From Vicinamibacterales bacterium (lineage in GTDB: Bacteria; Acidobacteriota; Vicinamibacteria; Vicinamibacterales; UBA8438), in the NCBI GenBank assembly GCA_963662965.1, contig OY759970.1:3328524-3392523 (forward strand): a stretch of DNA of 64,000 bases, read 5' to 3'. Of the stretch, positions 3,817-61,500 are shown in pieces; positions within the stretch are counted from its first letter, which is position 1, and each line of letters begins with the position of its first letter. The notes under the pieces were generated by a model. The model ran no database searches and was not told the origin of the DNA. It saw only the letters and a list, made by a program, of their open reading frames with translations. A program made the translations under genes and the position numbers.

Positions 3817-4725
3817 ATGACGACACAGCGAACACTTAGACGTTCCGTCTCCTGCTCGGGTATCGGCCTACACTCGGGGCAGAAAGTCACCCTTCGACTC
3901 AAGCCTGCTCCGATCGATCACGGGATTCGCTTCAAACGACTCGATCTCGACGGTCTTGAGGTTTCCGCGACAGCTGAGCGGGTCGCGAGGATGAACTACG
4001 CGACCGAGTTGGCGCAGGATGCGGCTTCGGTTGGCACGGTCGAGCATCTGCTCGCGGCGCTGGTGGGACTCGGCGTCGATAACGTGAGCATCGAGTTGAA
4101 TCAGGCCGAAGTGCCGATCATGGACGGGAGCGCCGCGTCGTTCGTCTACTTAGTCCATGAAGCCGGTATCCACACGCTCAAGTCGCCTCGACGTTTTCTC
4201 AAGGTGGTGCGACCCATCACGCTGTCGCGCGGTGACAAGCGGATCGCGGTGTATCCGTCGGATTACTTCAAGGTCACCTACAGCATCAGCTTCGACCATC
4301 CGTTGCTGCGGCACCAATCCCGAACCCAACGTGTGACGGAGGATTCCTTCATCGAGGAGATCGCGCCGGCGCGCACGTTTGGTTTCCTCAAAGAGGTCGA
4401 ACAGCTTCGGCAAAAGGGGCTCGCCCTGGGTGGCTCGCTGGACAACGCGATCGTCCTGGGTGAGACAGGTGTCCTCAACGACTCGTTACGATTCGAGGAT
4501 GAGTTCGTGCGACACAAGATCCTCGACGTGATCGGCGACCTCGCGTTGGTCGGTCACCCGATCATCGGTCACGTTGTCGCGCACCGCGGCGGACATGCGC
4601 TCCACGCGAGATTTGCCCAGAAGATTCTTGATGATGTCGACGCCTGGCGGCTCGTCGAGTCGTCGGTTGACCCGGCGGACGACGCCCCCGCTTCGATCAA
4701 GGTCACCGTGCCCGCCAGCTCCTAG
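3817..4725 (+). CDS. lpxC: UDP-3-O-acyl-N-acetylglucosamine deacetylase
   Basis: MTTQRTL... N-terminus, GxGLHSG, PIMDGSA and HRGGHAL motifs. I prefer ATG 3817 over the TTG at 3793 in the ORF track. Confidence 0.92.
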   Translation: MTTQRTLRRSVSCSGIGLHSGQKVTLRLKPAPIDHGIRFKRLDLDGLEVSATAERVARMNYATELAQDAASVGTVEHLLAALVGLGVDNVSIELNQAEVPIMDGSAASFVYLVHEAGIHTLKSPRRFLKVVRPITLSRGDKRIAVYPSDYFKVTYSISFDHPLLRHQSRTQRVTEDSFIEEIAPARTFGFLKEVEQLRQKGLALGGSLDNAIVLGETGVLNDSLRFEDEFVRHKILDVIGDLALVGHPIIGHVVAHRGGHALHARFAQKILDDVDAWRLVESSVDPADDAPASIKVTVPASS

Positions 4726-4889
4726 TGGCCTGTAACAGCTGAATCAGTAACACTCCGCGGGCGTGGGGCATCCCGCCTGCCTGCGTTACTCCTCGGTCAC
4801 AAATGCCAGACTTTCTCCCTCGTCGCGCCTTGCCAGCTGGGTGCCGCGCGCCGCGGAGTGGTACTGATTCAGCTGTTACAGGCCACTAG
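4722..4889 (-). repeat. family A palindromic interspersed element, copy A1
   Basis: Arms 4722-4760 and 4851-4889 are complementary at 38 of 39 positions. Interior blocks are shared with A2-A6. Confidence 0.9.
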
Positions 4890-6700: not shown

Positions 6701-7297
6701 ATGTTGGTGGCCATCGAAGGATTGGACCAGAGCGGGAAGGAAACCCAGGCGCAGCGGTTGCGCGACCACGTCAGAGCGGAAGGACACAAGTCCCGCGTCG
6801 TTTCGTTCCCCGACTACGGAACCTCAATCGGCGAAGAGATCGCCCGTGCGCTCCAGGGCGAGCGAGAGTATGGACCGGAGGCGATGCAGCTCCTCTACGT
6901 CGCGAACCGGTTCGAGCGCAAGGCTGACATCGACCGGTGGCACGACGCCGGCCTCGTGGTGCTGTTCGACCGCTACGTCGCGTCGAGCATCGCCTACGGC
7001 GAGGCGCAAGGGCTCGACCCGGCGTGGCTGACGACGCTTCAGGTGTATCTACCCCAACCGGACCTCACGCTCCTGCTCGACATCGCGCCCGAGACCGCCG
7101 TGAGCCGCAAGACGACCGGGCGCGACCGGTATGAGCAAGATCTGACGATGCTCCAGCGTGTCCGAGCAAGCTACCTCCGCCAAGCCGAACATCCCCAATG
7201 GATGCGCGTCGACGGAGAGCAGCCGAAGGATTCGGTCGCGGCCGCGCTCGCGACAGCCATCGCGCCGCACCTAGCGGCGGGCAGGAGCCCGCGGTGA
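6701..7297 (+). CDS. tmk: thymidylate (dTMP) kinase
   Basis: IEGLDQSGKETQ P-loop, DRY motif, about 198 aa. The last 4 codons plus the stop lie in repeat A3. Confidence 0.88.
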   Translation: MLVAIEGLDQSGKETQAQRLRDHVRAEGHKSRVVSFPDYGTSIGEEIARALQGEREYGPEAMQLLYVANRFERKADIDRWHDAGLVVLFDRYVASSIAYGEAQGLDPAWLTTLQVYLPQPDLTLLLDIAPETAVSRKTTGRDRYEQDLTMLQRVRASYLRQAEHPQWMRVDGEQPKDSVAAALATAIAPHLAAGRSPR

Positions 7298-7457
7298 AAG
7301 TCGCGCTGCATTCGACCGACGATGCATCCGGCAAGGGCCCTTGTTGGTCTTCCATGTAGCGGGGTCGCATACTGTCGGTATTCTCCCTCGTCCCGCCTTG
7401 CCAGGCCGGGCGCCTCGCCGGTCTCGGTGCCACGCGCGACTTTCACCGCGGGCTCCT
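7283..7457 (-). repeat. family A element, copy A3
   Basis: Perfect 24-nt arms (7283-7306 / 7434-7457). Core CGGTATTCTCCCTCGTCCCGCCTTGCC. Confidence 0.9.
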
Positions 7458-8201
7458 AAGATGAGCTGACGGGCCGGTGGCCGGCGCCACGCTGAGGGCC
7501 CGCACGCTTCTCGCCCCCGCGTCGACCAGCACGGACGCACACGCCTCGACGGTCGCTCCGGTCGTCACGACGTCGTCTACCAAGAGGATGCGACGTCCGC
7601 GAATGGCCGCGGCGGTGCGGCGTCCGCCGCGCCATTCCCTGAGCCTGAACGCGCCGCCGACGGCGCGCAGACGGTCGCCGCGCGCCAGTACTGCCTGTGG
7701 GCGCGTGTGTCGCGTGCGGCGGAGCGCGTTGACGACCGGCGAGTCGAGACCGGCCGCCAAGTCGGCCGCTTGATTGAACCCGCGTCGCCAGCGCCGCAGC
7801 GGATGCAGCGGCACCGGCACGATGAGGTCGGTGTCCGAGAGCCAAACCTGGCCCGCGGTGCGCATCAGCTGCGTGAGTGGGACCGCGAGCGTTCGCCGGC
7901 CACCGTACTTGAGCGCATGCACGATCGCGCGCAAGGTTTCGTCATGTAGACTGACCGTTCGGCGCGGGGTTGTGAGTCCGGCGGAGCGGGTGCAGGACAC
8001 GCAGTATGCGGGCGGGGCTGCCGCGGCCCACAACGGGATGGCGATGCCGTAGAGATCGCAGACCGGTGGTTCGATTCGTGCGACCCGCTGCCAACAGTCG
8101 ACGCACATCCTACCGCGAGAGGGCGCAACCAGTAGTTCCTCGCAGACCGCGCACCGTGGTGCCCACGCCACCGCCAGCAGGGCGTCGACGACGTGTCGCA
8201 C
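7443..8201 (-). CDS. comF: ComF family phosphoribosyltransferase-like protein
   Basis: N-terminal CxxC...CxxC, and a C-terminal PRTase motif ILLVDDVVTTGATV. I chose GTG 8201, because upstream of it the long ORF overlaps rsfS. The last codons lie in repeat A3. Confidence 0.8.
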   Translation of the reverse strand: MRHVVDALLAVAWAPRCAVCEELLVAPSRGRMCVDCWQRVARIEPPVCDLYGIAIPLWAAAAPPAYCVSCTRSAGLTTPRRTVSLHDETLRAIVHALKYGGRRTLAVPLTQLMRTAGQVWLSDTDLIVPVPLHPLRRWRRGFNQAADLAAGLDSPVVNALRRTRHTRPQAVLARGDRLRAVGGAFRLREWRGGRRTAAAIRGRRILLVDDVVTTGATVEACASVLVDAGARSVRALSVAPATGPSAHLRSPR

Positions 8202-11253: not shown

Positions 11254-12090
11254 CTATCTGAGCATGGTCCGCGTGCCCCGGATGCTCTGGTCGGCCAGCG
11301 CCCCGAGAAATGAAGGCAGCAGGCGGTCCATTAGCTCAAAATACGACGAGAGCGCCGGCGAGTTGTGGGAGACGTCGTACAGCACCTCTTCCCGGTGGCG
11401 TTCCGTGTGGAGCGTGACCCCGGTTCCGCCATCGATGAAGATGAACTTGGGGCTCAGCACGAATCCCTTCCGGTCGCGATAGGCCCGCATCGGTACCACC
11501 CGTCGCCGTCCGAAGTCATCGTAGATCTCGCGTTCACGCGCCACCATGCCGGAGCGCTGATGAGAAGTGAAGTAGACCGTGCCGGTGACGATCAGCGGAC
11601 TCTGATGTTCCTCGCCGAGCTGCCGCCAGTAGCTCACGTTGGCGAAGATCGACTCGTAGGCCTCGAGTTCTTCCTCACTGAGAGTCTCGTCCTCTTCCCC
11701 CTCGACATCGTCCTGGCCGTTGTCGTCCTGGGCGGAGAGCGGCGCGCCACTCGTCGTGCGGCCGAGCCCATCGCCGCTGGCCGCGTCTTGGTCGGCCAGC
11801 ACGTCGCCTTCCAGCTCGGCGATCGCCAGGAGATCGAGCACTTCGGCATCGATGACGTCGAGGCGTGATTCGTTGCGCAGCTGGCTGCGTAGCAGACGCG
11901 CCGTCTCGAGATTCGTGTCGACTTCGCTGGTCCCGCCGGCCAGAAAGCCGGCGACGAGTATGCGCTGGAATCGCGCGATCTCCAGCTTTGGCTGAAGTGG
12001 GGTCTCGATCGGCACTTCATAGGAGTTCGTGCATGCCGAGACGCCGAGAAGAAAGAGCGCGCTAACGGTCGTTTTCTGAAAGGCGGTCAT
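11254..12090 (-). CDS. hypothetical lipoprotein with an acidic central region
   Basis: MTAFQKTTVSALFLLGVSAC lipobox. The start lies inside the long ORF-track ORF and overlaps the 3' end of the TPR gene by 29 nt. Confidence 0.6.
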   Translation of the reverse strand: MTAFQKTTVSALFLLGVSACTNSYEVPIETPLQPKLEIARFQRILVAGFLAGGTSEVDTNLETARLLRSQLRNESRLDVIDAEVLDLLAIAELEGDVLADQDAASGDGLGRTTSGAPLSAQDDNGQDDVEGEEDETLSEEELEAYESIFANVSYWRQLGEEHQSPLIVTGTVYFTSHQRSGMVAREREIYDDFGRRRVVPMRAYRDRKGFVLSPKFIFIDGGTGVTLHTERHREEVLYDVSHNSPALSSYFELMDRLLPSFLGALADQSIRGTRTMLR

Positions 12091-12466
12091 AGATTTCCCT
12101 GAAGAGGTCGTAGTTCTGTTGAATATTAATGTCGTTCGGGGCGAGGTCGAGCGCCTCTTCGTAGGCCTCGAGCGCCTCGTCGAACATCCCCTTCTGCTCG
12201 TACGCGATGCCGAGGTTGTTCCAGGCCGCAGGATACGACGGATCGATTTCCGTGGCGCGCTTCCAGCGATAGGTCGCCTCATCCCAGAGCTCGCGCTGCG
12301 CCACTTTCATTCCGAATTCGACCTGCGCTCGCGCGTCGTCACGCACATCAGCCGAAAGGGTGGGCGCGGAAGCGCCAACGAGGGTGATGGCAAGAACAGT
12401 CAGAATGGTCGCAGCCCGTAGTGAAAGCCCCACTGCATTCGACCGGCGCTGCATTCCGTCTGCCAT
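12062..12466 (-). CDS. small secreted TPR-repeat protein
   Basis: Signal-peptide-like LRAATILTVLAITLVGASA, then TPR motifs (AWNNLGIAYEQKGMFDEALEAYEEAL). Candidate starts are 12466, 12454 and GTG 12433, all of them inside repeat A4. Confidence 0.65.
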   Translation of the reverse strand: MADGMQRRSNAVGLSLRAATILTVLAITLVGASAPTLSADVRDDARAQVEFGMKVAQRELWDEATYRWKRATEIDPSYPAAWNNLGIAYEQKGMFDEALEAYEEALDLAPNDINIQQNYDLFREIYDRLSENDR

Positions 12467-12583
12467 CGTTGCTCCTCGGTCAAATACTGCCGGTATTCTC
12501 CCTCGTCACGCCTCGTCCTGGCCGGCCGCTACCTTATTCAACTGGGGTCTCGATGCAACGCGGGGTTTCACCACGGGCTGCGA
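12409..12583 (-). repeat. family A element, copy A4
   Basis: Imperfect 34-nt arms homologous to those of A3. Core CGGTATTCTCCCTCGTCACGCC. Confidence 0.85.
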
Positions 12584-12852
12584 ACTCGTACGGGACGTAC
12601 CCCGAGTGAATCACGGTTGATCGAAATATAGCCAGGTCGTGCGGCTTGGGCAAGTGTCTGGGGAGAATCACTCCAACCTCAAACTAAGATAGCAAGAGGC
12701 GTGCCGTCGGTCCGGTGCCGACGGTGTATTTGCCGCGTCCTCGCGCCCGTCTCACATCGAGAAAAGTGCGTACTGACACACTCAGTGTGACGCTTGGGCG
12801 CGCGGTCCGGGTTCGCCGGCCGTGGTCCGCTTCTTGCGATAACCAGTCCGCC

Positions 12853-16444: not shown

Positions 16445-16716
16445 TCAGACGGGGCGTGCGGCGACCAAGCTTAGACTGGGGGAATATCGCGCTCGGCCGA
16501 ACGGTCGAGCCTCGCGCGCTTTCCCCAGACCCCCTCGCTCGCTCACTCGTGGGGACCCCGAATGCCCCACTCCGTTCGCTAGCGTATGGTGTGGGACAGC
16601 CGAGTCATTCGAAGTACGATCAGGGCGCGCACGGCGCGCCCCCGCCGGCACGGAGTGGGGCGAAAGGGTCCCCGCGAGTGCTGGCCGGTGGGGTCGGGGC
16701 CGTAGGCCCCGTCTAG
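16445..16716 (+). repeat. family B element B1 (X hairpin + full Y module)
   Basis: X hairpin 16476-16528. Internal arms 16544-16575 / 16650-16680. GGGCGCGC-ACG-GCGCGCCC at 16623-16641. Terminal GGGGCC-GTA-GGCCCC at 16696-16710. Confidence 0.9.
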
Positions 16717-16719
16717 ATT

Positions 16720-18129
16720 ATGGTCACAATCATCGGCGGTGGATTGGCCGGCAGCGAGGCGGCATGGCAGGCCGCTTCGCGCGGCGTCCGGGTTTCCCTT
16801 CACGAAATGCGACCGGTGCGCATGACGGCGGTGCATCGTACCGACCGATTGGCGGAGCTCGTCTGTAGCAACTCGTTCCGCGGGGACAAGCTCGAGCATG
16901 CCGTGGGGCTTCTCAAAGAAGAGATGCGGCAGCTCGACTCCCTGGTCATGCGTGTGGCCGACGCGACCCGAGTGCCGGCGGGAGGGGCGTTGGCGGTCGA
17001 CCGCGATCGATTCGCCGAGGGGGTGAGCTCGGCACTCCACGCCGAGCAGCGGATCGAGATCCATCGGGAGGAGGTCGACCACCTTCCAGAGCCGGCTGGT
17101 ACGACCAAACCGGTCATCGTCGCCACCGGACCGCTGACGTCGCCGCGACTGTCGGCCGACGTCACCGCGCTCATCGGTCGTGAGCAGCTGTACTTCTTCG
17201 ACGCGATCAGTCCGATCGTGCACGCAGAGTCGATCGACCACGGGAGAGTGTTTCGGGCGTCGCGCGCCGGACGCGGGAAGCCTGTCGAGGACGCCGCGCC
17301 TGGACGCGCATGCGGGGACGACACAGGAGACGGTGATTACCTGAACTGTCCGATGACCGCCGACGAGTACGGTCGCTTCTATGACGCGCTGACCACGGCC
17401 GAGCTCGCCGAGGTGCACGATTTCGATCGAACGCCGTTCTTCGAGGGGTGTCTCCCGATCGAAGTGATGGCCCATCGTGGTGTCGACACGCTTCGGTTTG
17501 GACCGATGAAGCCGGTTGGCCTGGTCGATCCGAGCACCGGCCGGCGGCCGTACGCGGTGGTCCAGCTCCGCCAAGACAACCTGGCGGCCGATCATTTCAG
17601 CCTGGTCGGGTTTCAGACGCAGCTCAAGTGGCCAGAGCAACGGCGGGTGCTCCGTCTCATCCCGGGACTCGAGCACGCCGAGTTCGTACGACTCGGCATG
17701 ATTCACCGCAATACCTACATCAACGCGCCGACCGTACTCACACCGACGTGGCAAATGCGGAGCCGGCCAGACGTGTTCTTTGCCGGCCAGCTCTCCGGCG
17801 TCGAGGGATACGTCGAGTCTGCCGCGTCGGGTCTTGTCGCCGGCATCAATGCCGCCGCCCTCGCGCGCGGCGAGGTGAGCCGCGCGCTTCCCCGCACGAC
17901 AGCGATTGGCGCGCTGGGGTACTACGTGTCGCACGCGGCCGCCGAGAACTATCAGCCGACAAACATCGCGTACGGTCTGATCCCGTCGCTCGACAACCCG
18001 CCGCGCGGCCGTCAGGCGAGGCGCGGGGCGCTTGCGGCCCGCGCCCTGGCCGACCTGGCCGCGTGGCGGTCGCGCGGGTGGGGGGCGGACCATGATCAGA
18101 CCAGGGGAATATCACCCTCGGTCGCATGA
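16720..18129 (+). CDS. trmFO: methylenetetrahydrofolate-tRNA-(uracil54-C5)-methyltransferase
   Basis: VTIIGGGLAGSEAAWQ FAD motif and Gid/TrmFO-like length. The last 12 codons are encoded by repeat B2. Confidence 0.92.
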   Translation: MVTIIGGGLAGSEAAWQAASRGVRVSLHEMRPVRMTAVHRTDRLAELVCSNSFRGDKLEHAVGLLKEEMRQLDSLVMRVADATRVPAGGALAVDRDRFAEGVSSALHAEQRIEIHREEVDHLPEPAGTTKPVIVATGPLTSPRLSADVTALIGREQLYFFDAISPIVHAESIDHGRVFRASRAGRGKPVEDAAPGRACGDDTGDGDYLNCPMTADEYGRFYDALTTAELAEVHDFDRTPFFEGCLPIEVMAHRGVDTLRFGPMKPVGLVDPSTGRRPYAVVQLRQDNLAADHFSLVGFQTQLKWPEQRRVLRLIPGLEHAEFVRLGMIHRNTYINAPTVLTPTWQMRSRPDVFFAGQLSGVEGYVESAASGLVAGINAAALARGEVSRALPRTTAIGALGYYVSHAAAENYQPTNIAYGLIPSLDNPPRGRQARRGALAARALADLAAWRSRGWGADHDQTRGISPSVA

Positions 18130-18306
18130 CGGAGTCGCGGGCGCTTCCCCCGGACCCCCCTCGCTCGCTTGCGTATGTTGGGCGTAGCCGGCTTGTTCGA
18201 AGTACGAGCGGGGCGCGCAGGGCGCGCCCCAGCCGGCACGGAGTGGGGCAAATGGGGTCCCCACGAGTGCCGGCGGCGGGGTTCGGGGCCGCAGGCCCCG
18301 TCTAAG
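18094..18306 (+). repeat. family B element B2 (X + Y, with a 37-nt internal deletion relative to B1)
   Basis: Collinear with B1 except for loss of the left internal arm. The terminal hairpin is present. Confidence 0.9.
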
Positions 18307-18318
18307 TAAGACGGACTC

Positions 18319-31382: not shown

Positions 31383-31572
31383 CTAGTGGCCTGTCCAAGC
31401 CAAAGCGACAGCGCTCCGCGGGCGGGGCATCCCGCAAGGGCTGGCGTTATGACCTCGCCTGGTGGGGTCACAAATGCCCAATTTGCTCCCTCGTCGCACC
31501 TTGCGGGGGCCGGGCGCGTCTGTCGATCAGCGACCACGGACTGCTGTCGATTTGGTTCGGACAGGCCACTGG
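31383..31572 (-). repeat. family A element, copy A2
   Basis: Same termini and interior blocks as A1. Over the 31-nt arms there are 26 Watson-Crick pairs plus 3 G-T pairs. Confidence 0.9.
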
Positions 31573-31583
31573 TTCGGTTCGCC

Positions 31584-32906
31584 GTGCTGATGCTGCTCGT
31601 GGCCGCAACGGCGGCATGTGGCGTGAAGGGACCGCCACGCCCCCCGGTGCGGATCGTCCCCGCGCGGATCCTGGCTCCCGAGTTCGTGCGCATGGGCGAC
31701 CGTGTCTATCTGGAGTTCGCAGTTCCCGCCGCGGATACGGATGGGTCGAGCCCCGCCGACATCGAGCGGGTCGAAGTGTATGCCGTCACGACGCAGCCGA
31801 CCGAGCGACGTCCGACGGAGGCGTTTTCCGAAGATTGGTTGGAGGCGGCGACGCTGGTCGCGACGCTGCCCGTGCGGCCGCCAGGGATGGAGGTGCCGCG
31901 CCGTCCGTCCGACGAGGACGAGACTGACGCTGATGCCGATTCTGAGCGCGACGAAGGAGACGACGCGATCGACGACGGATTCGTGGGCCAGGGGGACCTG
32001 GTCACGGTTGTCGAGCGACTGACTCCCGAGACCCTGGTGCCGGTCAAGGTCGGTGACGAGGACGAGGAAGACGAGGAGGAGGAGGATCGGGACGACGACG
32101 AGCCCGACCGAGTCATCCCGATGCCCTACCTCCCGCCGCCGTTGCCGATGCCGTCGGTCCGCTCCTACGTGGCGTTCGGGGTGTCGTCGCGTGGGCGAGA
32201 CGGTGATCCATCCGTGATGGTCGCCGTGCCCCTCGTGACGCCGCCGGATCCACCCGCGCCGGCCACCGCGTCGTATGACGGTGAGCTGGTGGAAATCGCG
32301 TGGGAGGAGCCGGTTGGTGGCATACGTCAGCCGGTGCAGGACGATGAGCCGTCGGAAGACGGGCTCGCGTCGAGTCCGATTCTCGAAGGGCTCGAAGCGT
32401 CGGCATACGTGTTGTTCGATGTGGCGGCCGCTGATGACCCCGATCGGGACCGGCCACCGACCGTCACGAATCCGCGGGATGAGACGTCGTACACCGACAC
32501 CGACGTTGAGTTCGGCGACACCAAGTGCTACGCGGTACGCGTGCTCGACTTCGTGGGCGCGGCTGAGATTATGGGTGATGCCTCGCCGGCGACGTGCCTG
32601 GTCCTGACTGACACCTTTGTCCCGGCTGCGCCACGTGGGCTCCTGGCCGTGTCCGATGACGAGTCGATCAATCTGGTGTGGGACGACAATAGCGAGGACG
32701 ACATCGCCGGCTACGTGGTCTTGCGCGGATTGGCATCAGATGCGACACTCCAACCGCTCACGCTCGAGCCGGTTGTAGACCCGACGTATCGAGACAGCGA
32801 TGTCGTCGCCGGGGAGCGGTATAGCTATCAGGTCATGGCGGTCGACGACGCGGTGCCGCCCAACGAGAGCCCGCCGTCGGCCGCGATTACGGAGACCGCA
32901 CGGTAG
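31584..32906 (+). CDS. lipoprotein with acidic tracts and a C-terminal fibronectin type III-like domain
   Basis: LLVAATAACGVKGPPRPP lipobox, D/E-rich runs, and a C-terminal FN3-like pattern (LVWDDNSEDDIAGYVVLRG...YSYQVMAVD). The start is uncertain (GTG 31584 or ATG 31590). Upstream of it the ORF runs through repeat A2. Confidence 0.6.
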   Translation: MLMLLVAATAACGVKGPPRPPVRIVPARILAPEFVRMGDRVYLEFAVPAADTDGSSPADIERVEVYAVTTQPTERRPTEAFSEDWLEAATLVATLPVRPPGMEVPRRPSDEDETDADADSERDEGDDAIDDGFVGQGDLVTVVERLTPETLVPVKVGDEDEEDEEEEDRDDDEPDRVIPMPYLPPPLPMPSVRSYVAFGVSSRGRDGDPSVMVAVPLVTPPDPPAPATASYDGELVEIAWEEPVGGIRQPVQDDEPSEDGLASSPILEGLEASAYVLFDVAAADDPDRDRPPTVTNPRDETSYTDTDVEFGDTKCYAVRVLDFVGAAEIMGDASPATCLVLTDTFVPAAPRGLLAVSDDESINLVWDDNSEDDIAGYVVLRGLASDATLQPLTLEPVVDPTYRDSDVVAGERYSYQVMAVDDAVPPNESPPSAAITETAR

Positions 32907-37494: not shown

Positions 37495-37556
37495 GGCGCG
37501 CACGGCGGCGCCCCCGCGAGTGCCGGCGACGAGGTTCGGGGCGGTAAGCCCCGTCT
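37494..37556 (+). repeat. family B truncated Y module (B4)
   Basis: GGGCGCGCACGGCGGCGCCC...CGCGAGTGCCGGCG...GGGGCGGTAAGCCCCGTCT. Confidence 0.75.
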
Positions 37557-37561
37557 GGGTA

Positions 37562-38095
37562 ATGATGCGGATCGAGATCGAGGTCGACGGGACGATGCAC
37601 GACGTCACAATCGATGCGATGACCAGCGCGCCGGGGCGCTTCCTCGTCTCCTGGGGCGGGACGACGCATGAAGTCGATGCACGCGTGGTCGAGCGCGATC
37701 GGCACGGGATGCTGCTGTCGCTCGTTCGGATGGGCGGCGATGCTACGAGTCGACAAGTCCGTTGCAGCGCGGTCGAGCGCGGGACGATGACGGTGAGGGC
37801 CGCCGGGGTCGATCACCGCGTCGTGATCAACGGGAGTCGTAGGCGGGTCGACCTCCCAGAGGCCGGCGATGGGGGCGGAGGTGTGTCCCGGTTGAAGGCG
37901 CCGATGCCAGGCAAGGTGGTCCGTGTCCTGGTCGCGCCGGGGGACGATGTCGACGCACGACAGCTGCTGGTCGTGGTCGAAGCGATGAAGATGGAGAACG
38001 AGCTGACCGCGGCACGTGCCGGTACCGTGACCGAGGTGCCGGTCAGCGAGGGGGACTCGGTCGAGTCGGGCCGGCTCCTCGTGGTGATCGAGTAG
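37562..38095 (+). CDS. biotin carboxyl carrier (biotinyl/lipoyl domain) protein
   Basis: C-terminal APMPGKVV...EAMKMENE biotinylation motif. ATG 37562 is the first ATG after repeat B4. Confidence 0.8.
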   Translation: MMRIEIEVDGTMHDVTIDAMTSAPGRFLVSWGGTTHEVDARVVERDRHGMLLSLVRMGGDATSRQVRCSAVERGTMTVRAAGVDHRVVINGSRRRVDLPEAGDGGGGVSRLKAPMPGKVVRVLVAPGDDVDARQLLVVVEAMKMENELTAARAGTVTEVPVSEGDSVESGRLLVVIE

Positions 38096-41100: not shown

Positions 41101-42357
41101 GGGACCATGCGGCTGATGGCGCAGATTGGCGGTTCGTTCCAGGAACCGGTTCTGACCGGTGAGGTGCGGATCGCGAACGGCCGGCTTCGCCATTTCTCGC
41201 TGCCGCATTCGCTCGACGCGCTCGACGGACGCGTCGTCTTCGAGCCTGGGGGCGTGCGGCTTGATGAACTGACGGCACAGTTTGGTGGGGGGGCGGTCCG
41301 CTTCGGGGGTCGGATCGGCCTACAGGGATATCGGATTGGCAACCTCGGCGTGACCGCCAGCCTCGAGGACACGACTTTGCGCCTCGAGGATATCCGGTCT
41401 CGCGTCGACGCGGAGCTGACGCTGCGCGGCCCGATCGAGGCTCCGACGCTCGGCGGCGTCGTCAACGTCCAAGATGCCATCTGGCTCCGGCTCTTCCAAT
41501 CGCCCACCAGGCTGATTGACCTCTCTGGGGGGGACTCGACGCCGGCCACCGATGCGGAGACGAGCATCCCGCTGCAGTACGACCTGCGCATCTCCGCGCC
41601 CTCGAGTCTGCGGATCTCGGACAATCGCGCACAGATCGTCGCCAGCGCCGAGCTTGCCCTGCGGGGAACCTACGCCCGACCGACGCTGGTGGGAAACATC
41701 GAGATCGAGCGGGGGCAGGTCTACTTCGAGGGCAATCGATACCGGGTGACGCGGGGCAATGTCGGCTTCGCGAACCCGACCGAGATCGAGCGGTTCTTCG
41801 ACGTTGAGGCGGAAACCGACATCCGCGTGCCTGGTCAAACGTATCGCGTCACTATCGGGTTGAGCGGGACGGTCGACCGTCTGGCGCCACCGACGCTTGA
41901 GTCCGACCCGCCGCTCCAGCAGTTCGAGATTATCGGATTGCTGCTCGGCGATGTCCGTGACCCGCAGCAGGCGGAGATCCGGACGCTGCGGGCCCGTGAA
42001 GCCTCACAGCAGGAGCTCCTGCAGGCGGTGGGCGCTCGGCTACTTACGAATCCGATTTCGTCCGGAGTCGGCGGCGTCATGCAGCGCTCGTTTGGCGTCG
42101 ACACCTTCGAAATCGTCCCCTCGCTCGACGATTCGGCTGCGCACCAGTCGACGCAGTTGATCCCGACGGCGCGGGTGCTGATCGGCCGACGTATTTCCGA
42201 CCGCGCGCACGTCACATTTTCTCGCGCGGTCAGCGGAAACAATCAGGACCTCATTGTGATCCTTGAGTACGACGCGAGCGACCGCCTCTCGTGGGTGCTG
42301 TCGCAAAACGAGGACCGGACCTACGCGCTCGACTTCCGGGTCAGGCACGCCTTCTGA
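38101..42357 (+). CDS. tamB: translocation and assembly module protein TamB-like (AsmA/DUF490 family)
   Basis: 1418 aa. N-terminal TM anchor, long beta-rich repetitive body. Placed immediately upstream of, and overlapping, an Omp85 gene. Confidence 0.8.
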   Translation: MADERLPDDREPETPPAPMESDAAAEATGAVTAPRPWWRRPWVRLRRYSRRTVIVLIALAAAGLVSVVSIDLGPSLRAQAEQQLSNQIDRPVSIGRFGTYLLPGRFLIEDLVIGGPNPGDRPFFVGDRIVISTAWLPLLLNREFLVDSVDLDGWRMLVESFEGGEHTFPPFVGRRDDDGSTTESTVKLGGGDEPDPENDAAATDAAEDEEEGRRLFVTTVQYLRAHNGEFVYDDYGVPWSIVARNIDLTMTKSTGYGGQASFHGGTVQIGDFEPMTTDWEATYEVDGGLVEFTRMDLEMDGLEAVLDGTVDMLNWPSADIQITESSIDAPTMKEVFFAKDNFTTTGDATYTGEFHLFDGGRELTGTFVSENFTFGDLDFQPIDGDLVWTRDRFEITRARSGFYGGDLQFSYAMKPLGDEEPTIATLATEVDGMAVAPLFDALGLTGARPLGALGGEVFLEWPLSSFADRRGHASLNVTPEDGVPLQSRGVRPPSIRVGWGYAGQPFESDGEPWRFPLGSEIDLTFGPDGIELEPSWMATPLTAVEFVGQTAWGDESRIPFEVVSADWQESYRLMASIMTAFGRPTGEIAVAGYGSMSGVMHGAFLAPRIETTFDGDDVRAWNVDWGHGAGEMVVEGGFLDVTDGLFRDATSALRVDGRFAFGSPPTGEDDINASFELDGVPAQNLRDAFGIEGYLIDGPLYGDFRLYGEYERPFGFGRLRIGAGTAYGESFDQTDAGLRFDGEGVWLDGLTVRKGAGEITGAMYVRWNGTYSVNADARGLDLATSSLFDRPGPGVSGLLDFSISGVGAFEEPRYQIRGTMTDLAIAGADVGQVTGRLDVQDDVMALELEAASPTLAVSGSGRIELTDAARSELRFRVTNTTLDPFVRTLQPDMPEATTMVASGTILVQGPLADVDQLGVDATVEQLDLTLFDYAVTNDGPIRLLFDRNVLQVAEMHLQGEGTALDLSGEVSLADDRFTLNANGDASLGILQGFFPDVRGRGTMRLMAQIGGSFQEPVLTGEVRIANGRLRHFSLPHSLDALDGRVVFEPGGVRLDELTAQFGGGAVRFGGRIGLQGYRIGNLGVTASLEDTTLRLEDIRSRVDAELTLRGPIEAPTLGGVVNVQDAIWLRLFQSPTRLIDLSGGDSTPATDAETSIPLQYDLRISAPSSLRISDNRAQIVASAELALRGTYARPTLVGNIEIERGQVYFEGNRYRVTRGNVGFANPTEIERFFDVEAETDIRVPGQTYRVTIGLSGTVDRLAPPTLESDPPLQQFEIIGLLLGDVRDPQQAEIRTLRAREASQQELLQAVGARLLTNPISSGVGGVMQRSFGVDTFEIVPSLDDSAAHQSTQLIPTARVLIGRRISDRAHVTFSRAVSGNNQDLIVILEYDASDRLSWVLSQNEDRTYALDFRVRHAF

Positions 42358-45320
42358 TGTTGCTCCCTCGTCACGCCGTGCACGGGCCCGGCGCGATCTG
42401 TGCCTGTCTCGTCCTCTGGGCGGGCCCGGCGGCGGCCGGGGCGGAGGTCGACGAATTCATCGGCCAGCGTGTGGTCGAGGTCGAGTTCGCCACAGATGGG
42501 ATCCCGATTAACGACCCCGCCGTTCGCGAGCTGGTGGAAACGACCGCCGGCGAGCCGCTCGCGATGCGCGAGGTCCGTGAGAGCTTGGCGCATCTCTTCA
42601 GCCTCGGTCGCTACGGCCACGTTGCGGTCGACGCCTACCCACGCGCCGGCGGTGTGGCGCTGCTGTATGAGCTGAGGCCGTTCGAGCTCGTCGAGCGCAT
42701 CGAGCTCTCCGGTAATCGGGTGCTCGCCGCCGACGACGTGCGGCGCGTCGTCGTCCAGCGCCACGGCGAGGTCTTCCCCGCCAGCGCGGCCGCCGCGGTG
42801 GCCGATACCGTGCGCGCGTACTACGCGGAGCGCGGTTTTCTGTCACCGCGGGTCGACGCGGAGCTGCGCGGGTCGGCGACCGAGCGCACCCTTCGCTTGA
42901 CGATAGTTGCTGGCGCGCGCGCCCGCGTCAATCGGTGGTTCATCACCGGCGTCGCCTCGGCGTTGCTCAACACGCGGCTGCGAGCTCGTCTGGGCCTCGT
43001 CGACGGCGACGTCTACGACGGCGCGAGGCTCGATCAGCGGTTGAGCGAGTACGAGGGCGAGCTCCGCGCGCTGCAGTACTACGAAGCGCGTCTCTCGCAC
43101 ACGGTGGAGCGACGCACAGACGCGGACATCGACGTCCGTTTGAACATCCTGCGCGGACCGCGCATCACGGTGACGCTGAGCGGCGACGAGGTGCCGGACG
43201 CGCGGCTCGGCGATCTGGTGCCGGTCGGACGCGAGGCGAGCGTCGACGAGGACTTGCTTGAGGATGCCGACCGACGGATCGCGGCGCACTTGCGGTCGCT
43301 CGGCTACCGCGACGCGGACGTGACGCACACGGCCGACGGGACCGCGGACGAGCTGTCGATCGTCTTCGCGGTGACCCGCGGCCCGTTCTATCAGGTGGTT
43401 GCCGTGCGGATTCGAGGCAACGCGAGCGTGCCGACCGAGGTGCTCCTGCCGGTGGTCAACATCACGTCTGGCGATCCGCTCATTGTCTCCGACGTGGACG
43501 CCGGGTTGGCCGCCATCGAGGAGCGCTACCAGCAGCTCGGCTATGCGACCGTGCGCGCGACCAGAACCTTCGCCGACATCGCGACCGGTGGCGCTGCGGG
43601 TACCGTGATGCAGACCGTCGATATCGACATCGTCGAAGGGCCGCGGATGACCATTGCCGCCTTGGTGTTCGACGGGGTCGAGGCGTGGCCGTTTGACAGA
43701 CTCGAGGAGACGGTCGCCGCACGTATCGGCGAGCCTTTCTACGGACCGCAGGTGAGCGACGACCGCGATGCGCTGCTGTCGCTCTATCTCAACGACGGGT
43801 ACGAGCAGGCCGTGGTGGTCGTCGAGCCGCAGTTTGCGGACGACCTGCGCACCGTCGACCTGGTCTTCCGCGTCGACGAAGGGCGTCAGGTACTCGTCGA
43901 TCACGTGTTGATCGTCGGTAACCGTCGGGTCGACTCCGAGACGATTCGTGGCGAGCTCGCCCTCGCGCCCGGCGACCCGCTTGGTCTCGACGACGTCGCG
44001 GAGACCCGTCGCCGGCTCAACGCGCTGGGGATGTTTCGTGGACTCGATATCCGGGAGTTTAGCCATGGTTCTGTCGACCGACGCGATGTCATCATCGAAG
44101 TGGAGGAGGCGCCGGCGACGACGCTGGCGTACGGCGGCGGGCTCGAAGTGTCGCAGCGGATTCGGCGTGACTCGGGCGACGAGGGAAGCGCCGCGGTGGA
44201 GCGGATCGAGTTTGCGCCGCGCGGATCGTTCCAGATCGGGCGCCGCAACCTGTGGGGCAAGAACCGGTCGATCAACTTGTTTACCCGTGTGAGTGTCCGG
44301 CGTAAGAACGATCCATCCGAGCCGGGTTCGGCTGACGCGGCCCGAACGCTTGGGTTTAACGAGTACCGGGTGTTGGGGACCTATCGCGAGCCGCGGTCGT
44401 TCCGGCTGCGCTGGGATGTGCTGATGTCGGGTTACGTGGAGCAGGCGATTCGACCCGGGTTCGATCTGTTCACCCGCGGTGTCACGGCACAGGTGGTGGC
44501 GGGATCCGGTGATAGGACGAGCACGACGCTCGGCTACCGCCTGGGGAGCAACGACACGTCGAATCGACAGCTGGACCCCGAGGACAGCAATATCGTCGAC
44601 CGACTGTTTCCGGAGGTGCGACTGTCGTCATTCCGGCTGAGCCGGCTTCGGGACACCCGCAACGATCCGTTCGATCCGACACGCGGCACGGTCCTCACCG
44701 CCGAAACCGAGCTCGCCGCTCGCTCGATCGGGTCCGCGGTCGGGTTTACCAAGACATTTCTGTCCGGTTCGTTCTTCCGCGAGCTGCGCGACGCGTCTCG
44801 TCTCGTGTTTGCCGCCAGTGCACGTGTCGGTCTGGCGTGGGGTTTTCCGCAGACGTATCATCTCGAGGGCCCCGGCGGACCGATGGAGGTGTCGCAGACG
44901 CTCGACCTGCCGATCAGCGAGCGCTTTTTTGCCGGAGGGGATAACACCGTGCGTGGATTCGCCCTCGACCGCCTGGGCGATCCGCGTGAGGAACCGGGCG
45001 GCACCATCGATCAGGACGGCTTTCCGCAGGGCGGTAACGCCATGCTCATCTTTAATACCGAGCTACGTGTGCGGCTGACGCGCGCCGTCGGACTCGTGAC
45101 GTTTCTCGACGCCGGGAACGTTTATGATGATGTGCAGCACGTGAGCCTGCGTCGTATCCGCGGCGGCGCTGGCTTCGGGGTACGGTACAGTTCGCCAGTC
45201 GGACCGATTCGCGTCGACCTCGGCTTCAAGCTCGGTGAGCGGCACTTCTTTGGTGACGAGACGAGTCGGACGCAAGAACCGCTCACCGCGCTTCACATCA
45301 GCATCGGCCAAGCGTTTTAG
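42357..45320 (+). CDS. Omp85-family outer membrane protein assembly factor (BamA/TamA-like)
   Basis: Signal peptide, several POTRA-like units, C-terminal barrel with RGF/GGD-type motifs (FFAGGDNTVRGF) and a terminal ...ISIGQAF. ATG 42357 overlaps the tamB TGA. Confidence 0.85.
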   Translation: MLLPRHAVHGPGAICACLVLWAGPAAAGAEVDEFIGQRVVEVEFATDGIPINDPAVRELVETTAGEPLAMREVRESLAHLFSLGRYGHVAVDAYPRAGGVALLYELRPFELVERIELSGNRVLAADDVRRVVVQRHGEVFPASAAAAVADTVRAYYAERGFLSPRVDAELRGSATERTLRLTIVAGARARVNRWFITGVASALLNTRLRARLGLVDGDVYDGARLDQRLSEYEGELRALQYYEARLSHTVERRTDADIDVRLNILRGPRITVTLSGDEVPDARLGDLVPVGREASVDEDLLEDADRRIAAHLRSLGYRDADVTHTADGTADELSIVFAVTRGPFYQVVAVRIRGNASVPTEVLLPVVNITSGDPLIVSDVDAGLAAIEERYQQLGYATVRATRTFADIATGGAAGTVMQTVDIDIVEGPRMTIAALVFDGVEAWPFDRLEETVAARIGEPFYGPQVSDDRDALLSLYLNDGYEQAVVVVEPQFADDLRTVDLVFRVDEGRQVLVDHVLIVGNRRVDSETIRGELALAPGDPLGLDDVAETRRRLNALGMFRGLDIREFSHGSVDRRDVIIEVEEAPATTLAYGGGLEVSQRIRRDSGDEGSAAVERIEFAPRGSFQIGRRNLWGKNRSINLFTRVSVRRKNDPSEPGSADAARTLGFNEYRVLGTYREPRSFRLRWDVLMSGYVEQAIRPGFDLFTRGVTAQVVAGSGDRTSTTLGYRLGSNDTSNRQLDPEDSNIVDRLFPEVRLSSFRLSRLRDTRNDPFDPTRGTVLTAETELAARSIGSAVGFTKTFLSGSFFRELRDASRLVFAASARVGLAWGFPQTYHLEGPGGPMEVSQTLDLPISERFFAGGDNTVRGFALDRLGDPREEPGGTIDQDGFPQGGNAMLIFNTELRVRLTRAVGLVTFLDAGNVYDDVQHVSLRRIRGGAGFGVRYSSPVGPIRVDLGFKLGERHFFGDETSRTQEPLTALHISIGQAF
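42358..42405 (-). repeat. family A core fragment (A6) embedded at the tamB/Omp85 junction
   Basis: TTGCTCCCTCGTCACGCCGTGCACGGGCCCGGCGCG matches the A2 core TTGCTCCCTCGTCGCACCTTGCGGGGGCCGGGCGCG at 29 of 36 positions. Confidence 0.6.
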
Positions 45321-45960
45321 TGCGCTGCTGTCGGCCCTCCTGTGGGCGGCACCGCTCGGAGCCGTTGCCCAGAGCCTCGACCGCATCGTGGCCGTCGTCG
45401 CCGGCCACGTCATCTTGGCCTCCGACGTGAGGGCCTTCCTCGAGTTCGGCCTCATCGAGGTCGAGGCTTCTGGCTCTGTCTCTGACTCTGAAGAAGACGA
45501 GCGCACGCGCGCCGGATGCGCCCTGACGCGGCTGATCGAGCGACGTCTCGCGCTCGACGAGGTCGACCGATATCGGGTGGCCGCGCCGCGGCCAGAACAG
45601 ATCGATCGCGAGCTCGCTGCCCTCCGCGGTCGCTTCAGCGATGAGGAGGCGTTTGCGGATCTCCTGGCGGCGGTGGGGCTCGGACTGCCGGACCTCAGGC
45701 AGATTCTGCGGGACAATGTCCGGCTGGAGGCGTATCTCGCTGGACGCTTTGGTTCGGCGGATCGGCTGAGTGAGTCGGAGCTGCGCGCCTACTACGCCGC
45801 CAACCGTGACGACTTCACCGACGCGGGGCGCGGCGTCGCGTTCGACACGGTTCGTGCGCAGGTCCAAGCCCGGCTGTGGGCGGAGCGGCGCGCGGCCCTC
45901 GTCGAGAACTGGACTGCCGGTCTCGCTCTCCGCGGGGACGTGACCCGGTTTGAGCCATGA
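45235..45960 (+). CDS. periplasmic SurA N-terminal-domain-like chaperone
   Basis: Signal-like LSALLWAAPLGAVAQS, then DRIVAVVAGHVILASDV and helical repeats. The start is uncertain (GTG 45235, TTG 45250 or GTG 45253) and all candidates overlap the Omp85 3' end. The stop lies at the edge of repeat B3. Confidence 0.55.
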   Translation: MSGTSLVTRRVGRKNRSPRFTSASAKRFSALLSALLWAAPLGAVAQSLDRIVAVVAGHVILASDVRAFLEFGLIEVEASGSVSDSEEDERTRAGCALTRLIERRLALDEVDRYRVAAPRPEQIDRELAALRGRFSDEEAFADLLAAVGLGLPDLRQILRDNVRLEAYLAGRFGSADRLSESELRAYYAANRDDFTDAGRGVAFDTVRAQVQARLWAERRAALVENWTAGLALRGDVTRFEP

Positions 45961-46113
45961 TCAGACCGGGGGAATATCGCGCTCGATCGAGCAACGGAGT
46001 CTCGCGCGCTTCCTGGTCAGACGGGGCCTGCGGCTCCGAACCCCGCCGCCGACACTCGCGGGGGGCCCCTTTGCCACGCTCCGTGCCGGCGGGGGCGCGC
46101 CGTGCCCGCCCTG
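45959..46113 (+). repeat. family B element B3 (X module followed by an inverted Y module)
   Basis: The X module is collinear with B1/B2. 46017-46110 is the reverse complement of the B1/B2 Y module. Confidence 0.88.
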
Positions 46114-46261
46114 ATCTCAGACTCCCCCATCCGGGCTCAGCGAGAGCGATTGTTTCCCGGCCTGCGTGGGTGCCGGTCGGACATATCCCGAAAGAAACCG
46201 TCTGCCTTTAGCGAGACGAAGCACCCCTGTATCTGAGGGCGGCTGGATGTTTCCCGAGGCG

Positions 46262-50306: not shown

Positions 50307-52109
50307 ATGTCCACGCATTCTCGCGCTTCACGATATGTGCTGGTGATCGCGATTGCCGTCACCACGTTCACATCAGCGCAGGTAACCATTTCCGCGCAGT
50401 CCTCCGGCGCGTTTGTTCCCGTCACCGACGCGATGCTCCAGGAGCCGGCCCCCGGTGACTGGTTGATGTGGCGCCGCACGCTGGACAGCTGGGGCTACAG
50501 TCCACTGGACGAGATCGACCGAGACAACGTCGGTGCCTTGCGCATGGTCTGGTCGCGCGCGCTCACGGACGGGTTCCAGTCGGGCACACCGCTGGCCTAC
50601 GGCGGCGTGATGTACATGCCGAACCCGAACGATGTCATTCAGGCGATCGATGCGGCGACCGGCGATCTCATCTGGGAGCACCGCCGTCAGGTTCCCGACG
50701 ACGTCAACGAGTACTTGGGCGGTGAACTCTCGACGAACAATCGAAATATCGCGATCTACGACGACCTCATTATCGACACGAGCGTCGACGACCATGTCTT
50801 TGCCCTCTCGGCCGAGACGGGTCAGATGGAGTGGGAGACGCAAGTCCTAGACTACAAAGTCAATCCGGCCACCCAGGGCTCCGGTCCGATCATCGCCGAC
50901 GGCAAGGTGATCACGGGACGCAGTTGCTCGGCCAAGGGAGGACCGGAAGCGTGCGTCGTGACCGCGCATGACGCGACGACCGGGGCCGAGTTATGGCGGC
51001 GGCGTCTGATTCCAGGACCAGGTGAGCCGGGCGACGAAAGCTGGGGCGACGTCCCGTTCGAGGAACGAGTTCACGTCGGCGCGTGGATGGTGCCGAGCTA
51101 TGACCCGGTCCTCAATCTCGTCTACGTCGGAACCTCCGTCACCGCCCCGGCCCCGAAGTTCATGCTCGGAGGTGTGAACAACAAGCATCTCTATCACAAC
51201 TCCACGCTCGCGCTCGACGCCAACACCGGGGACATCGTGTGGTACTACCAGCATCTCAATGATCATTGGGACCTCGATCATCCGTTCGAGCGATTGCTGG
51301 TCGATACCGTGGTGGCGCCCGATCCGTCGGCGGTGAGCTGGATCAATCCGCGGTTGCGGACCGGGGAGACGCGGCGGGTCGTCACCGGTATTCCGGGAAA
51401 AACCGGGGTGGTGTATACCCTCGACCGTGCGACGGGGGAGTTCTTGTGGGCAACGCCGACCGTCACCCAGAACGTCATCAGCGACATCGACGGGGCAACC
51501 GGAGCAGTGTCGGAAAACTCGGAAGTGGTCTTCAGCGCATTGGGGCAGGAGGTCTTTGCCTGCCCGACCTGGAACGGCGGGAAGGACTGGGAGGCGGGCG
51601 CCTACAGCCCCCTGACCAATACGATGTACATGCCACTGCGGAACACCTGCGCTCGGATGATGGCCGCCACGGAGTTCGAAGACCGACCGAACGAGCCCAA
51701 CGAGAGTCGCGCGGCGACCTACGCGATTGCCTACCGCCACCAGCTGGCTCCTGGCACCGACAATGCCGGCACCGTGCGGGCGATTTCGGTAGAAACCGGC
51801 GAGACGGCCTGGCTCTATGAGCAGCGAACCGCGACCATGTCACTCGTGGCGACCGGGGGTGGACTTATCTTTGGTGGTGACGTCAATGGGCGATTTCGGG
51901 CGCTGGACCACGAGACGGGAGAGATACTGTGGGAAATCAACCTCGGGTCGTCGGTCACTGGGTTCCCCATCACGTACGCGGTCGATGGTCGGCAGTATGT
52001 GGCGGTAAGTACTGGCTCTGGGGGGACGTCGGCGCACTTTATCGGTTTGACGCCTGAGATTCGCCCTAGCTCGGGGAACAACCTCTTCGTGTTCGCCTTG
52101 CCAGATTAG
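50307..52109 (+). CDS. PQQ-dependent dehydrogenase (quinoprotein, 8-bladed propeller)
   Basis: Signal peptide. Repeated A(L/I)DxxTG(E/D)xxW blades: AIDAATGDLIWEH, ALSAETGQMEWET, AHDATTGAELWRR, ALDANTGDIVWYY, ALDHETGEILWEI. Confidence 0.85.
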   Translation: MSTHSRASRYVLVIAIAVTTFTSAQVTISAQSSGAFVPVTDAMLQEPAPGDWLMWRRTLDSWGYSPLDEIDRDNVGALRMVWSRALTDGFQSGTPLAYGGVMYMPNPNDVIQAIDAATGDLIWEHRRQVPDDVNEYLGGELSTNNRNIAIYDDLIIDTSVDDHVFALSAETGQMEWETQVLDYKVNPATQGSGPIIADGKVITGRSCSAKGGPEACVVTAHDATTGAELWRRRLIPGPGEPGDESWGDVPFEERVHVGAWMVPSYDPVLNLVYVGTSVTAPAPKFMLGGVNNKHLYHNSTLALDANTGDIVWYYQHLNDHWDLDHPFERLLVDTVVAPDPSAVSWINPRLRTGETRRVVTGIPGKTGVVYTLDRATGEFLWATPTVTQNVISDIDGATGAVSENSEVVFSALGQEVFACPTWNGGKDWEAGAYSPLTNTMYMPLRNTCARMMAATEFEDRPNEPNESRAATYAIAYRHQLAPGTDNAGTVRAISVETGETAWLYEQRTATMSLVATGGGLIFGGDVNGRFRALDHETGEILWEINLGSSVTGFPITYAVDGRQYVAVSTGSGGTSAHFIGLTPEIRPSSGNNLFVFALPD

Positions 52110-52124
52110 CAGCCATCTCATAAA

Positions 52125-52250
52125 GGCGCCGGCATTCGGCCGCCGATGCATCCCGCCAGGGGCGGCGTTGGGCGTTGCATGAGCGCGGTCGAATACTACC
52201 GGTATTCTCCCTCAGTCTTTGGCCGGGAGCGATATTCCCCTGGTCTGATC
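52125..52250 (-). repeat. family A element A5, fused to a family B X-module end
   Basis: Core CGGTATTCTCCCTCAGTCT, followed by the reverse complement of GATCAGACCAGGGGAATATCG at 52230-52250. Confidence 0.8.
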
Positions 52251-52580
52251 TTGGCCCCATCCGAAGTAGGCGAGGGCGACTAGCAGCGCGCTAAATCCGG
52301 CGCGCGCCAGTTGGGGCGCGAGCAAGAGCTCACCGTAGACGTGCGGATCATTGTGGAGGCTGATCGACTGAAGCCCGAGGAGGCCGCTGACGGCCAGCGC
52401 CAGTCCGCCGGGGAGCGAGACCCGCACCAACGCCGCGGCCAGCGCGAGGACGCCGCCCGAGAGCATCCGCCACAGGTTGGCCCACCACTCGAGCGTGCCC
52501 GAGCCGATGAGGTCGGCGACACCGACGACAACGTCGTACACGCCGTAGACCAACATCCCGAGCGCCGCGGCTCTCAGCAT
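52212..52580 (-). CDS. small integral membrane protein (about 4 TM)
   Basis: 122 aa, hydrophobic. The last 14 codons (QDQTRGISLPAKD) lie in repeat A5. Confidence 0.5.
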   Translation of the reverse strand: MLRAAALGMLVYGVYDVVVGVADLIGSGTLEWWANLWRMLSGGVLALAAALVRVSLPGGLALAVSGLLGLQSISLHNDPHVYGELLLAPQLARAGFSALLVALAYFGWGQDQTRGISLPAKD

Positions 52581-61413: not shown

Positions 61414-61500
61414 TGGTGCGAAAGGGGGGAGTTGAACCCCCATAGCCTTGCGGCTACCGGATCCTAAATCCGGCGCGTCTGCCAATTCCGCCACTTTCGC
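61414..61500 (-). tRNA. tRNA-Leu (anticodon UAG), class II with long variable arm, CCA encoded
   Basis: Folded by hand. Acceptor GCGAAAG/CTTTCGC. Anticodon stem CCGGA/TCCGG with loop TTTAGGA. Variable arm AGCC-GCAA-GGCT. T arm GGGGG-TTCAACT-CCCCC. Discriminator A plus CCA. Confidence 0.95.

Follow-up and report, generated by a model that had tools for sequence, protein, structure and literature searches.

The inverted-repeat elements A1 and A2 are, with a probability of roughly 0.8, IS5/IS1182-type MITEs (non-autonomous DNA transposons) in the genome of an uncultured, Vicinamibacterales-like acidobacterium. They belong to a very large family of elements of 106-190 bp without coding capacity of their own; the open reading frames that cross them are those of neighboring genes or GC-rich read-through. 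The original prediction presented A1 and A2 as a pair, which is real but makes up only two of the five copies in the window (the whole 64,000-nt stretch analyzed). All five were found on the + strand with a profile of the conserved centre:

A1, 4722..4889, + strand: complete element, 160 bp plus CTAG on each side (4722-4725 and 4886-4889)
A2, 31383..31572, + strand: flanked by CTAG (31383-31386) and CTGG (31569-31572)
B1, 7281..7459, + strand: B-type arms GAGCCCGCGGTGAAAGTCGCGC and GCGCGACTTTCACCGCGGGCTC, paired at 24 of 24 positions
B2, 12408..12584, + strand: B-type arms, terminal repeats spanning 12412-12580
B3, 52106..52213, + strand: truncated copy, left repeat decayed, left flank TTAG

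Copies in the window

The arms of A1 (4722-4760 and 4851-4889) are 39 nt long and complementary at 38 of 39 positions (97%), exactly as predicted, and enclose a core at about 4765-4848. Its RNA fold has an energy of -109.2 kcal/mol (z = -11.5), which none of 200 shuffled sequences equaled. In A2, the 40-nt arms (31385-31424 and 31531-31570) are complementary at 33 of 40 positions (83%), the core occupies about 31423-31519, and the fold z-score is -7.5 for the RNA of the + strand, -7.0 for the - strand, and -7.3 for DNA. The outer 12 nt and the inner blocks common to the two copies are present as originally described, and the exact 12-mer CTAGTGGCCTGT is confined to the ends of A1 and A2 (three exact matches and one with a single mismatch). 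The variable block inside it reads AACAGCTGAATCAGTAACA in A1 (4734-4752, paired with 4859-4877) and CCAAGCCAAAGCGACAGCG in A2 (31395-31413, paired with 31542-31560). A recount by hand agreed with the predicted difference at 11 of 19 positions, of which A2 forms Watson-Crick pairs at eight and a G-T pair at one, the remaining two being mismatched; its whole 19-nt block contains 15 Watson-Crick and two G-T pairs.

In a repeat search, the inner block of A1 and A2 recurred at 7363, 12478, and about 52190, each time between inverted arms of its own. A possible sixth copy at 42343-42381 (64%) coincides with the beginning of a coding sequence for a secreted protein, was missed by the core HMM, and was set aside as a chance match.

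The flanks of B1 are degenerate (GCAG and CTAA). Two genes, tmk (stop TGA, 7295-7297) and a convergent phosphoribosyltransferase-like gene (stop 7443-7445, - strand), end within its two arms (GTGAAAG/CTTTCAC). This location of the stops, together with the decay of the CTAG flanks, suggests that both genes may have short C-terminal extensions read from the element. B2, whose flanks have likewise degenerated (GTCG and CGAA), overlaps with the ATG at 12466 that starts the longest ORF of a TPR gene on the - strand (12062-12466); translated as part of that gene, the arm would supply the charged beginning of an N-terminus resembling a signal peptide. The candidate interpretation of the element as a small ORF or a - strand signal-peptide start was rejected, as the frame is stopped in B1, the tip hairpin covaries, and the codons are not conserved. 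The left flank of B3 (TTAG) holds the TAG stop of the upstream gene, which ends at 52109, and its core can be followed as far as ...TTCTCCCTC at 52213, the point at which a second repeat family takes over.

Family size and hosts

One genome per species was scanned with the core pattern GGTC, 14 free bases, TKCTCCCTCGTCNCRCC, which yielded at least 117 loci (designated below by L numbers) in addition to the window. These loci adjoin unrelated genes and, according to the core HMM, contain at least 146 copies, not counting the five in the window. The hosts are mostly Vicinamibacterales, together with other soil and marine Acidobacteria, including Bryobacterales. Copies with the same centre are also found in a few MAGs labeled Nitrospirales, Nitrospinota, Myxococcales, or Candidatus Palauibacter (L003, L006, L038, L039, L045, L083, L088, L101, L034, and L081), which is due either to horizontal transfer between phyla or to errors in binning. 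Two further matches, to MAGs of Actinomycetota and Gaiellaceae, look fortuitous. No match was obtained in plasmids searched with A1 and one B-type copy, or in viral contigs searched with the core pattern, and in the literature we found nothing specific on an Acidobacteria MITE of this kind.

Insertion sites and target duplication

Nearly all long copies are bounded on both sides by CTAG or a one-base variant of it; among 44 distinct B-type copies, CTAG stands on the left in 23 and on the right in 22. Where the flanks of B-type copies are not palindromic, they form direct repeats, namely TGAA/TGAA, ATAG/ATAG, and CTGG/CTGG, and thus represent a 4-bp target-site duplication. CTAG is itself palindromic, so that at A1 and A2 a duplication looks the same as a part of the repeat, and the flanks of these copies (CTAG/CTAG and CTAG/CTGG, respectively) are consistent with a duplication of 4 bp. 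Adjoining elements may have one CTAG in common, as in L106, L098, and L202.

The gene contexts of the copies, obtained with a home-made codon-usage gene caller, comprise 28 cases of convergent, 38 of co-directional, and 12 of divergent genes. The elements are located at gene ends, at a distance of about zero from the facing stop codon, which usually falls within the flanking CTAG. In particular, the TAG stop of lpxC (3991-4725) lies in the left CTAG of A1. The window contains 29 CTAG sites in its 64 kb, compared with about 200 expected from base composition. Since CTAG reads TAG on either strand and is infrequent at the 65% GC of this genome, surviving insertions would be expected at or beside stop codons, with the gene keeping its stop.

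A2 is placed between the hslU stop (31372) and the start of a lipoprotein gene (approximately 31584-31590), a spacer of 211 nt of which A2 takes up 190. Two assemblies (L118 and L119) encode an HslU identical to that of the window, and both have A2; in five syntenic relatives, which are distant ones (HslU 72-79% identical), the spacer measures about 30-80 nt and has no core. As judged from these sequences, A2 is an insertion that is absent at the orthologous site in the syntenic relatives. An open frame on the + strand (31386-32906) crosses all of A2 into the lipoprotein gene, and the signal peptide of this gene is shorter than the version in relatives.

A partner insertion sequence

The commonest arm type, B, begins with CAGCCCGTGGTGAAAG. 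The listing of B-type ends that lack the centre brought up an insertion sequence of 1468 bp (L106:1565-3032), located between two CTAGs, whose ends CAGCCCGTGGTGAAA and TTTCACCACGGGCTG are exactly those of the B type. Its product of 468 aa matches the Pfam families DUF772 (64 bits) and DDE_Tnp_1 (24.8 bits), and the number of its relatives at E<=1e-20 is 8000 or more. Among NCBIfam models, IS1182 scored best (155.8 bits) and IS5 next (80.5 bits), both below the curated cut-offs, and the family-level placement of this IS is therefore loose. A transposase of the DUF772 DDE type and a 4-bp CTAG/YTAR duplication, the features of IS5/IS1182, are both present, and IS5 itself has been reported to duplicate CTAG (PMC10379815). 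Four more copies with the same ends and CTAG flanks (L200-L203) encode transposases 81-83% identical, so that the full-length 1.47-kb IS with B-type ends occurs in five places in all. A homologue in L098, 65% identical, ends with ...CACCACGGGCTG followed by CTAG and abuts another element. The transposase frame reads on through the repeat at its end (...F T T G C) to the TAG of the adjoining CTAG, so that the target site provides the stop codon (L106:1561-1564 and 3033-3036; L200-L203, about 1998-2004).

The terminal repeat of the IS is only about 12-19 bp long, and the interior of the IS is unrelated to the centre found in the small elements. In agreement with this length, the outer 12 nt common to A1 and A2 are plausibly a transposase site, and the outer 12-16 bp of arm symmetry are plausibly explained by the presence of such a site at both ends. 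The complementarity over 30-40 bp therefore requires another cause; in particular, the transposase offers no obvious reason for the match between the arms in the 19-nt block that differs between A1 and A2 and lies inside these outer 12 nt. Among the collected loci, no IS with A-type ends (CTAG followed by TGGCCTGT) was found, and the mobilization of A1 and A2 themselves is thus proposed by analogy: A-type copies would use a related transposase.

Conserved centre and covarying arms

The arms of 75 full-length, well-paired copies were clustered and formed 21 clusters without mutual similarity, of which the B type contains 50 copies and the remainder are mostly singletons. The identity between a 5' arm and the reverse-complemented 3' arm averages 80% within a copy versus 49% against the arms of other clusters, which means that the pairing pattern is not due to chance. 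The same core thus stands between at least 21 unrelated, self-complementary arm pairs. It consists of GGTC, a 5-bp covarying tip hairpin, and then TKCTCCCTCGTCNCRCCTTG; the copies were gathered by the centre pattern, so that the invariance of this stretch is partly by construction. A constant centre with variable ends is the opposite of the usual MITE family, and a plain transposase-site model fails to explain it.

The 5' half of the centre has two forms, GCGTTGCTCCTCGGTC and CAAGGG...GGGGTC (A2, B1, and B3). Both occur with A-type and with B-type arms, which points to exchange between elements. In L010 (about 2600-2760, - strand), a chimeric copy combines a 5' arm of the L106 type with a 3' arm of the L001/L012 type, a combination that recombination of two elements through the common centre would produce.

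Comparison of 61 aligned centres demonstrated covariation of the tip hairpin and of the stem beneath it, one tip pair being CG in 30 copies, UA in 25, and GC in four. For the arms, we imposed the full hairpin on an alignment of 33 B-type copies from about 30 species (mean column identity 88%), in which 92.8% of the cells pair. Twenty stem pairs have changed on both sides, compared with 9.3 in shuffles (0 of 500), and the covariation score is 0.140, compared with 0.074 in shuffles and at most 0.047 for slid partners. The claim that the stem is kept while its sequence changes thus holds for the family as well as for A1 and A2, given the diversity of self-complementary arms and the excess of double changes. 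The original prediction named clonal subfamilies without compensated intermediates as a finding that would count against it; since one-sided intermediates are common beside the double changes, clonal subfamilies alone do not describe the data.

The degenerate flanks of B1, B2, and B3, the truncation of B3, and the chimera in L010 indicate that individual copies are unprotected. Accordingly, we attribute the constraint to the element's active lineage and not to each copy as a host gene, and we infer that interior arm complementarity is kept in a lineage of active master copies. For the arm interiors, a requirement for a hairpin (of DNA or of a transcript), arm-to-arm templated copying, or both could be responsible.

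The short form

A short form of 106 nt, TAG followed by GTTTCCTG...CAGGAAACC, contains little beyond the centre. It is found in L005, L009, L012, L017, L023, L036, L051, L087 (two copies), L090, L100, and L115, and in approximately 10-12 of 12-13 cases it lies in sense orientation after the in-frame TAG stop of unrelated genes. Its right side has neither TAG nor a duplication. These properties (one-sided TAG, no duplication, sense position after the stop) do not fit a cut-and-paste DDE model, which makes the short form the best lead toward something new. Several A-type copies resemble a short unit nested inside outer arms.

A broader reading of the family extends from these observations. The centre (45-90 nt) would be a portable module, either a structured RNA or a DNA site recognized by shape, that has repeatedly been coupled to unrelated transposon ends; the arms would owe their complementarity to active arm-to-arm copying and not to base-by-base selection; and the short form would be a mobile unit in its own right, inserting immediately behind TAG stops in sense orientation. 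We regard this combination as possible but rather unlikely.

Relation to known repeat families

The size of the elements, their terminal inverted repeats, the 4-bp duplication, the dispersed copies, and the presence/absence of copies are all those of bacterial MITEs. They resemble MITEs derived from IS5/IS1182, whose eukaryotic cousins are the Tourist/mPing elements of PIF-Harbinger, in being small and non-coding, in having (in the B type) ends identical to those of an IS, and in the number of copies at gene ends. They differ from these in the scores of the partner, which fall under the NCBIfam cut-offs, and in an interior unrelated to the IS, and from usual MITEs in the combination of one centre with many unrelated end pairs.

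Stem-loop-forming repeats are known as ERIC (IRU) of enterobacteria, YPAL, and SMAG. ERIC and like repeats are imperfect palindromes of 100-190 bp that fold over their full length, lie in intergenic regions beside stop codons, and are conserved between species; in ERIC, compensated stem changes have been noted as well. However, for ERIC neither a transposase partner nor a clear duplication is known, whereas the main type described here has both, and the hosts of ERIC belong to another phylum. We know of no sequence similarity between ERIC and the present family. The Correia element of Neisseria is likewise a MITE of similar size with inverted ends and a short TA-containing target near genes, and its hairpin transcripts can be processed; it differs in duplicating TA and in having one fixed 26-bp repeat, in contrast to the 4-bp CTAG and the diverse arms observed here.

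REP/REPIN sequences, which are mobilized by RAYT, are also palindromic extragenic repeats at gene ends in which shape matters, but they consist of units of 20-40 bp, carry GTAG/CGTC tags (PMC3733652), and make no duplication, whereas the present elements of 106-190 bp have CTAG duplications and the ends of a DDE IS. The ends found here are CTAG followed by CAGCCC, TGGCC, GGGCC, and similar sequences. They are also without the R''/R' motifs of integron attC sites (RYYYAAC ... GTTRRRY), which enclose a variable centre; here it is the centre, not the ends, that is conserved. Palindromic derivatives of IS200/IS605 are characterized by the absence of inverted ends and of a duplication and by a fixed word and orientation; the long types lack these traits, and the short 106-nt type shows some of them (one-sided TAG, no duplication, fixed orientation). 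This IS5/IS1182-type MITE family appears to be undescribed; ERIC and Correia differ from it in host phylum and target. The novelty originally claimed stands insofar as no described family was matched. The element is, however, not unrecognizable, since the CTAG duplication, the IS-identical ends, and the absence from relatives are the anatomy of a MITE.

Alternative explanations

The original prediction allowed for a selected RNA stem. According to this explanation, the elements would be a structured non-coding RNA, either a host RNA or a cis-regulatory one (3'-UTR stabilizer, processing site, or small RNA), with stems under RNA selection and copies as gene-like paralogues. The strong covariation of the tip hairpin and inner stems, the conserved unpaired C/U-rich strands in the centre, and the sense position of the short form after TAG stops would fit it. 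However, the long types have no fixed orientation, with 14 sense and 24 antisense copies in co-directional contexts, and the two strands of A2 fold about equally well. The asymmetry of G-U against A-C mismatches gives no consistent strand either: when each arm cluster is represented by a single copy, mismatches that would read G-U on the - strand are in slight excess (42 vs 19), whereas the cells of the B-type alignment show the other direction (97 vs 75), with opposite signs in the outer and inner stems, and this asymmetry was consequently dropped as evidence for a transcribed strand.

Searches for known RNA signals likewise gave a negative result. No Rfam family had been recognized originally, and at the gathering score the whole window contained nothing except a tRNA gene (61417-61500, - strand, 58.6 bits); at E<=1 there was no match in three loci, and at E<=10 only noise over A2, so that no curated covariance model matches the element. 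Scans for sigma-70 promoters and intrinsic terminators over A1 and A2 found none. Target duplications, an IS with identical ends, the absence from syntenic relatives, and the toleration of truncated and chimeric copies also argue against a host RNA, which is thus unsupported as a selected structure, and we give this explanation only a slim chance.

Even less probable is mobility as single-stranded DNA with the hairpin shape as the substrate, in the manner of IS200/IS605 derivatives, REP/REPIN with RAYT, or integron attC sites. It would account for arms that vary freely and yet remain complementary, and for the joining of the short type to TAG on one side without duplication, which resembles insertion 3' of a fixed word. 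The five copies of the window, moreover, have a common orientation, on a strand whose GC skew is positive along its whole length; over 126 copies, however, orientation shows no bias relative to local GC skew (57 vs 68). Direct 4-bp duplications at non-palindromic targets, true terminal inverted repeats in common with a DDE-transposase IS, and sequences without GTAG/CGTC tags or attC-type ends are at variance with this mechanism, and in an unsystematic look no HUH transposase was noticed beside the copies. Finally, chance or an assembly artefact without biological basis would agree with the origin of all sources from metagenome-assembled genomes, but it is refuted by the census of at least 146 copies in independent assemblies, long-read chromosomes included, by the same A2 in two independent assemblies, and by fold z-scores of -7 to -11, and its probability is negligible.

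Proposed mechanism and significance

For the preferred reading as an IS5/IS1182-type MITE, we propose that a DDE transposase encoded elsewhere would bind the terminal 12-16 bp or so, inverted at both ends, excise the element, and insert it at CTAG with duplication of the 4 bp. The element would then have three layers: the transposase site at the tips; a further stretch of the arms with no fixed sequence, in which only the complementarity of the two sides counts; and the conserved centre. A1 and A2 have the first and third layers in common and differ in the second. For this second layer we favor a model in which a hairpin or cruciform (or a transcript) would be needed for propagation, and intra-strand template switching would copy one arm onto the other, individual copies decaying afterwards. 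Template switching has been documented as a source of perfect stems and as a means of their maintenance (PMC8794818). The third layer may, at a guess, be a structure-dependent module for protein binding or RNA processing, by which the presence of the element at a gene end becomes tolerable.

A MITE as such is ordinary, and its recognition helps in annotating the genomes of Vicinamibacterales and related bacteria, where copies that overlap stop or start codons can mislead gene callers. What is unusual is a short centre conserved across orders and even phyla, with arms that are replaced or drift and are still complementary. Should the centre be functional, or should templated copying regenerate the arms, then this family would offer a natural system for the creation and maintenance of hairpins in DNA, and likewise for cargo modules that move between transposon families. 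The targeting of CTAG and stop codons illustrates how a transposon can enter operons without damage to proteins.

Other repeats near the elements

Several further repeats were observed around the elements. A mini-palindrome of 31 nt in L043 (about 4462-4495) consists of two B-type ends alone (CAGGAGTCCGCGGCGTTTCCACGGACTCCTG), without an interior, and another palindromic repeat (GTGGCGCACGGCTTYAGCCGTGCGATCGCAGGCCTGAAGGCCTGCGCCAC) recurs to the right of short-type copies in L051, L090, and L096. The second repeat family of the window is GC-rich, about 250 nt long (...GGGGTCCCCGCGAGTG...GGGGCCGYAGGCCCCGTCT...), unrelated to the hairpin elements, and present in both orientations:

16465-16720: second-family repeat
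18090-18309: second-family repeat
37507-37562: second-family repeat
45955-46116: second-family repeat
52218-52263: second-family repeat

One copy of it cuts off B3, and similar sequence adjoins the elements in L005, L053, L087, and L099. Finally, a second IS type with the end CAGGCTGCTGAAAAAC and the domains DUF772/DDE_Tnp_1_6 shares one CTAG with the first IS (L202, about 2004-2100), and its end also abuts small elements in the flanks of L010 and L078; several IS types thus pile up at the same CTAG sites.
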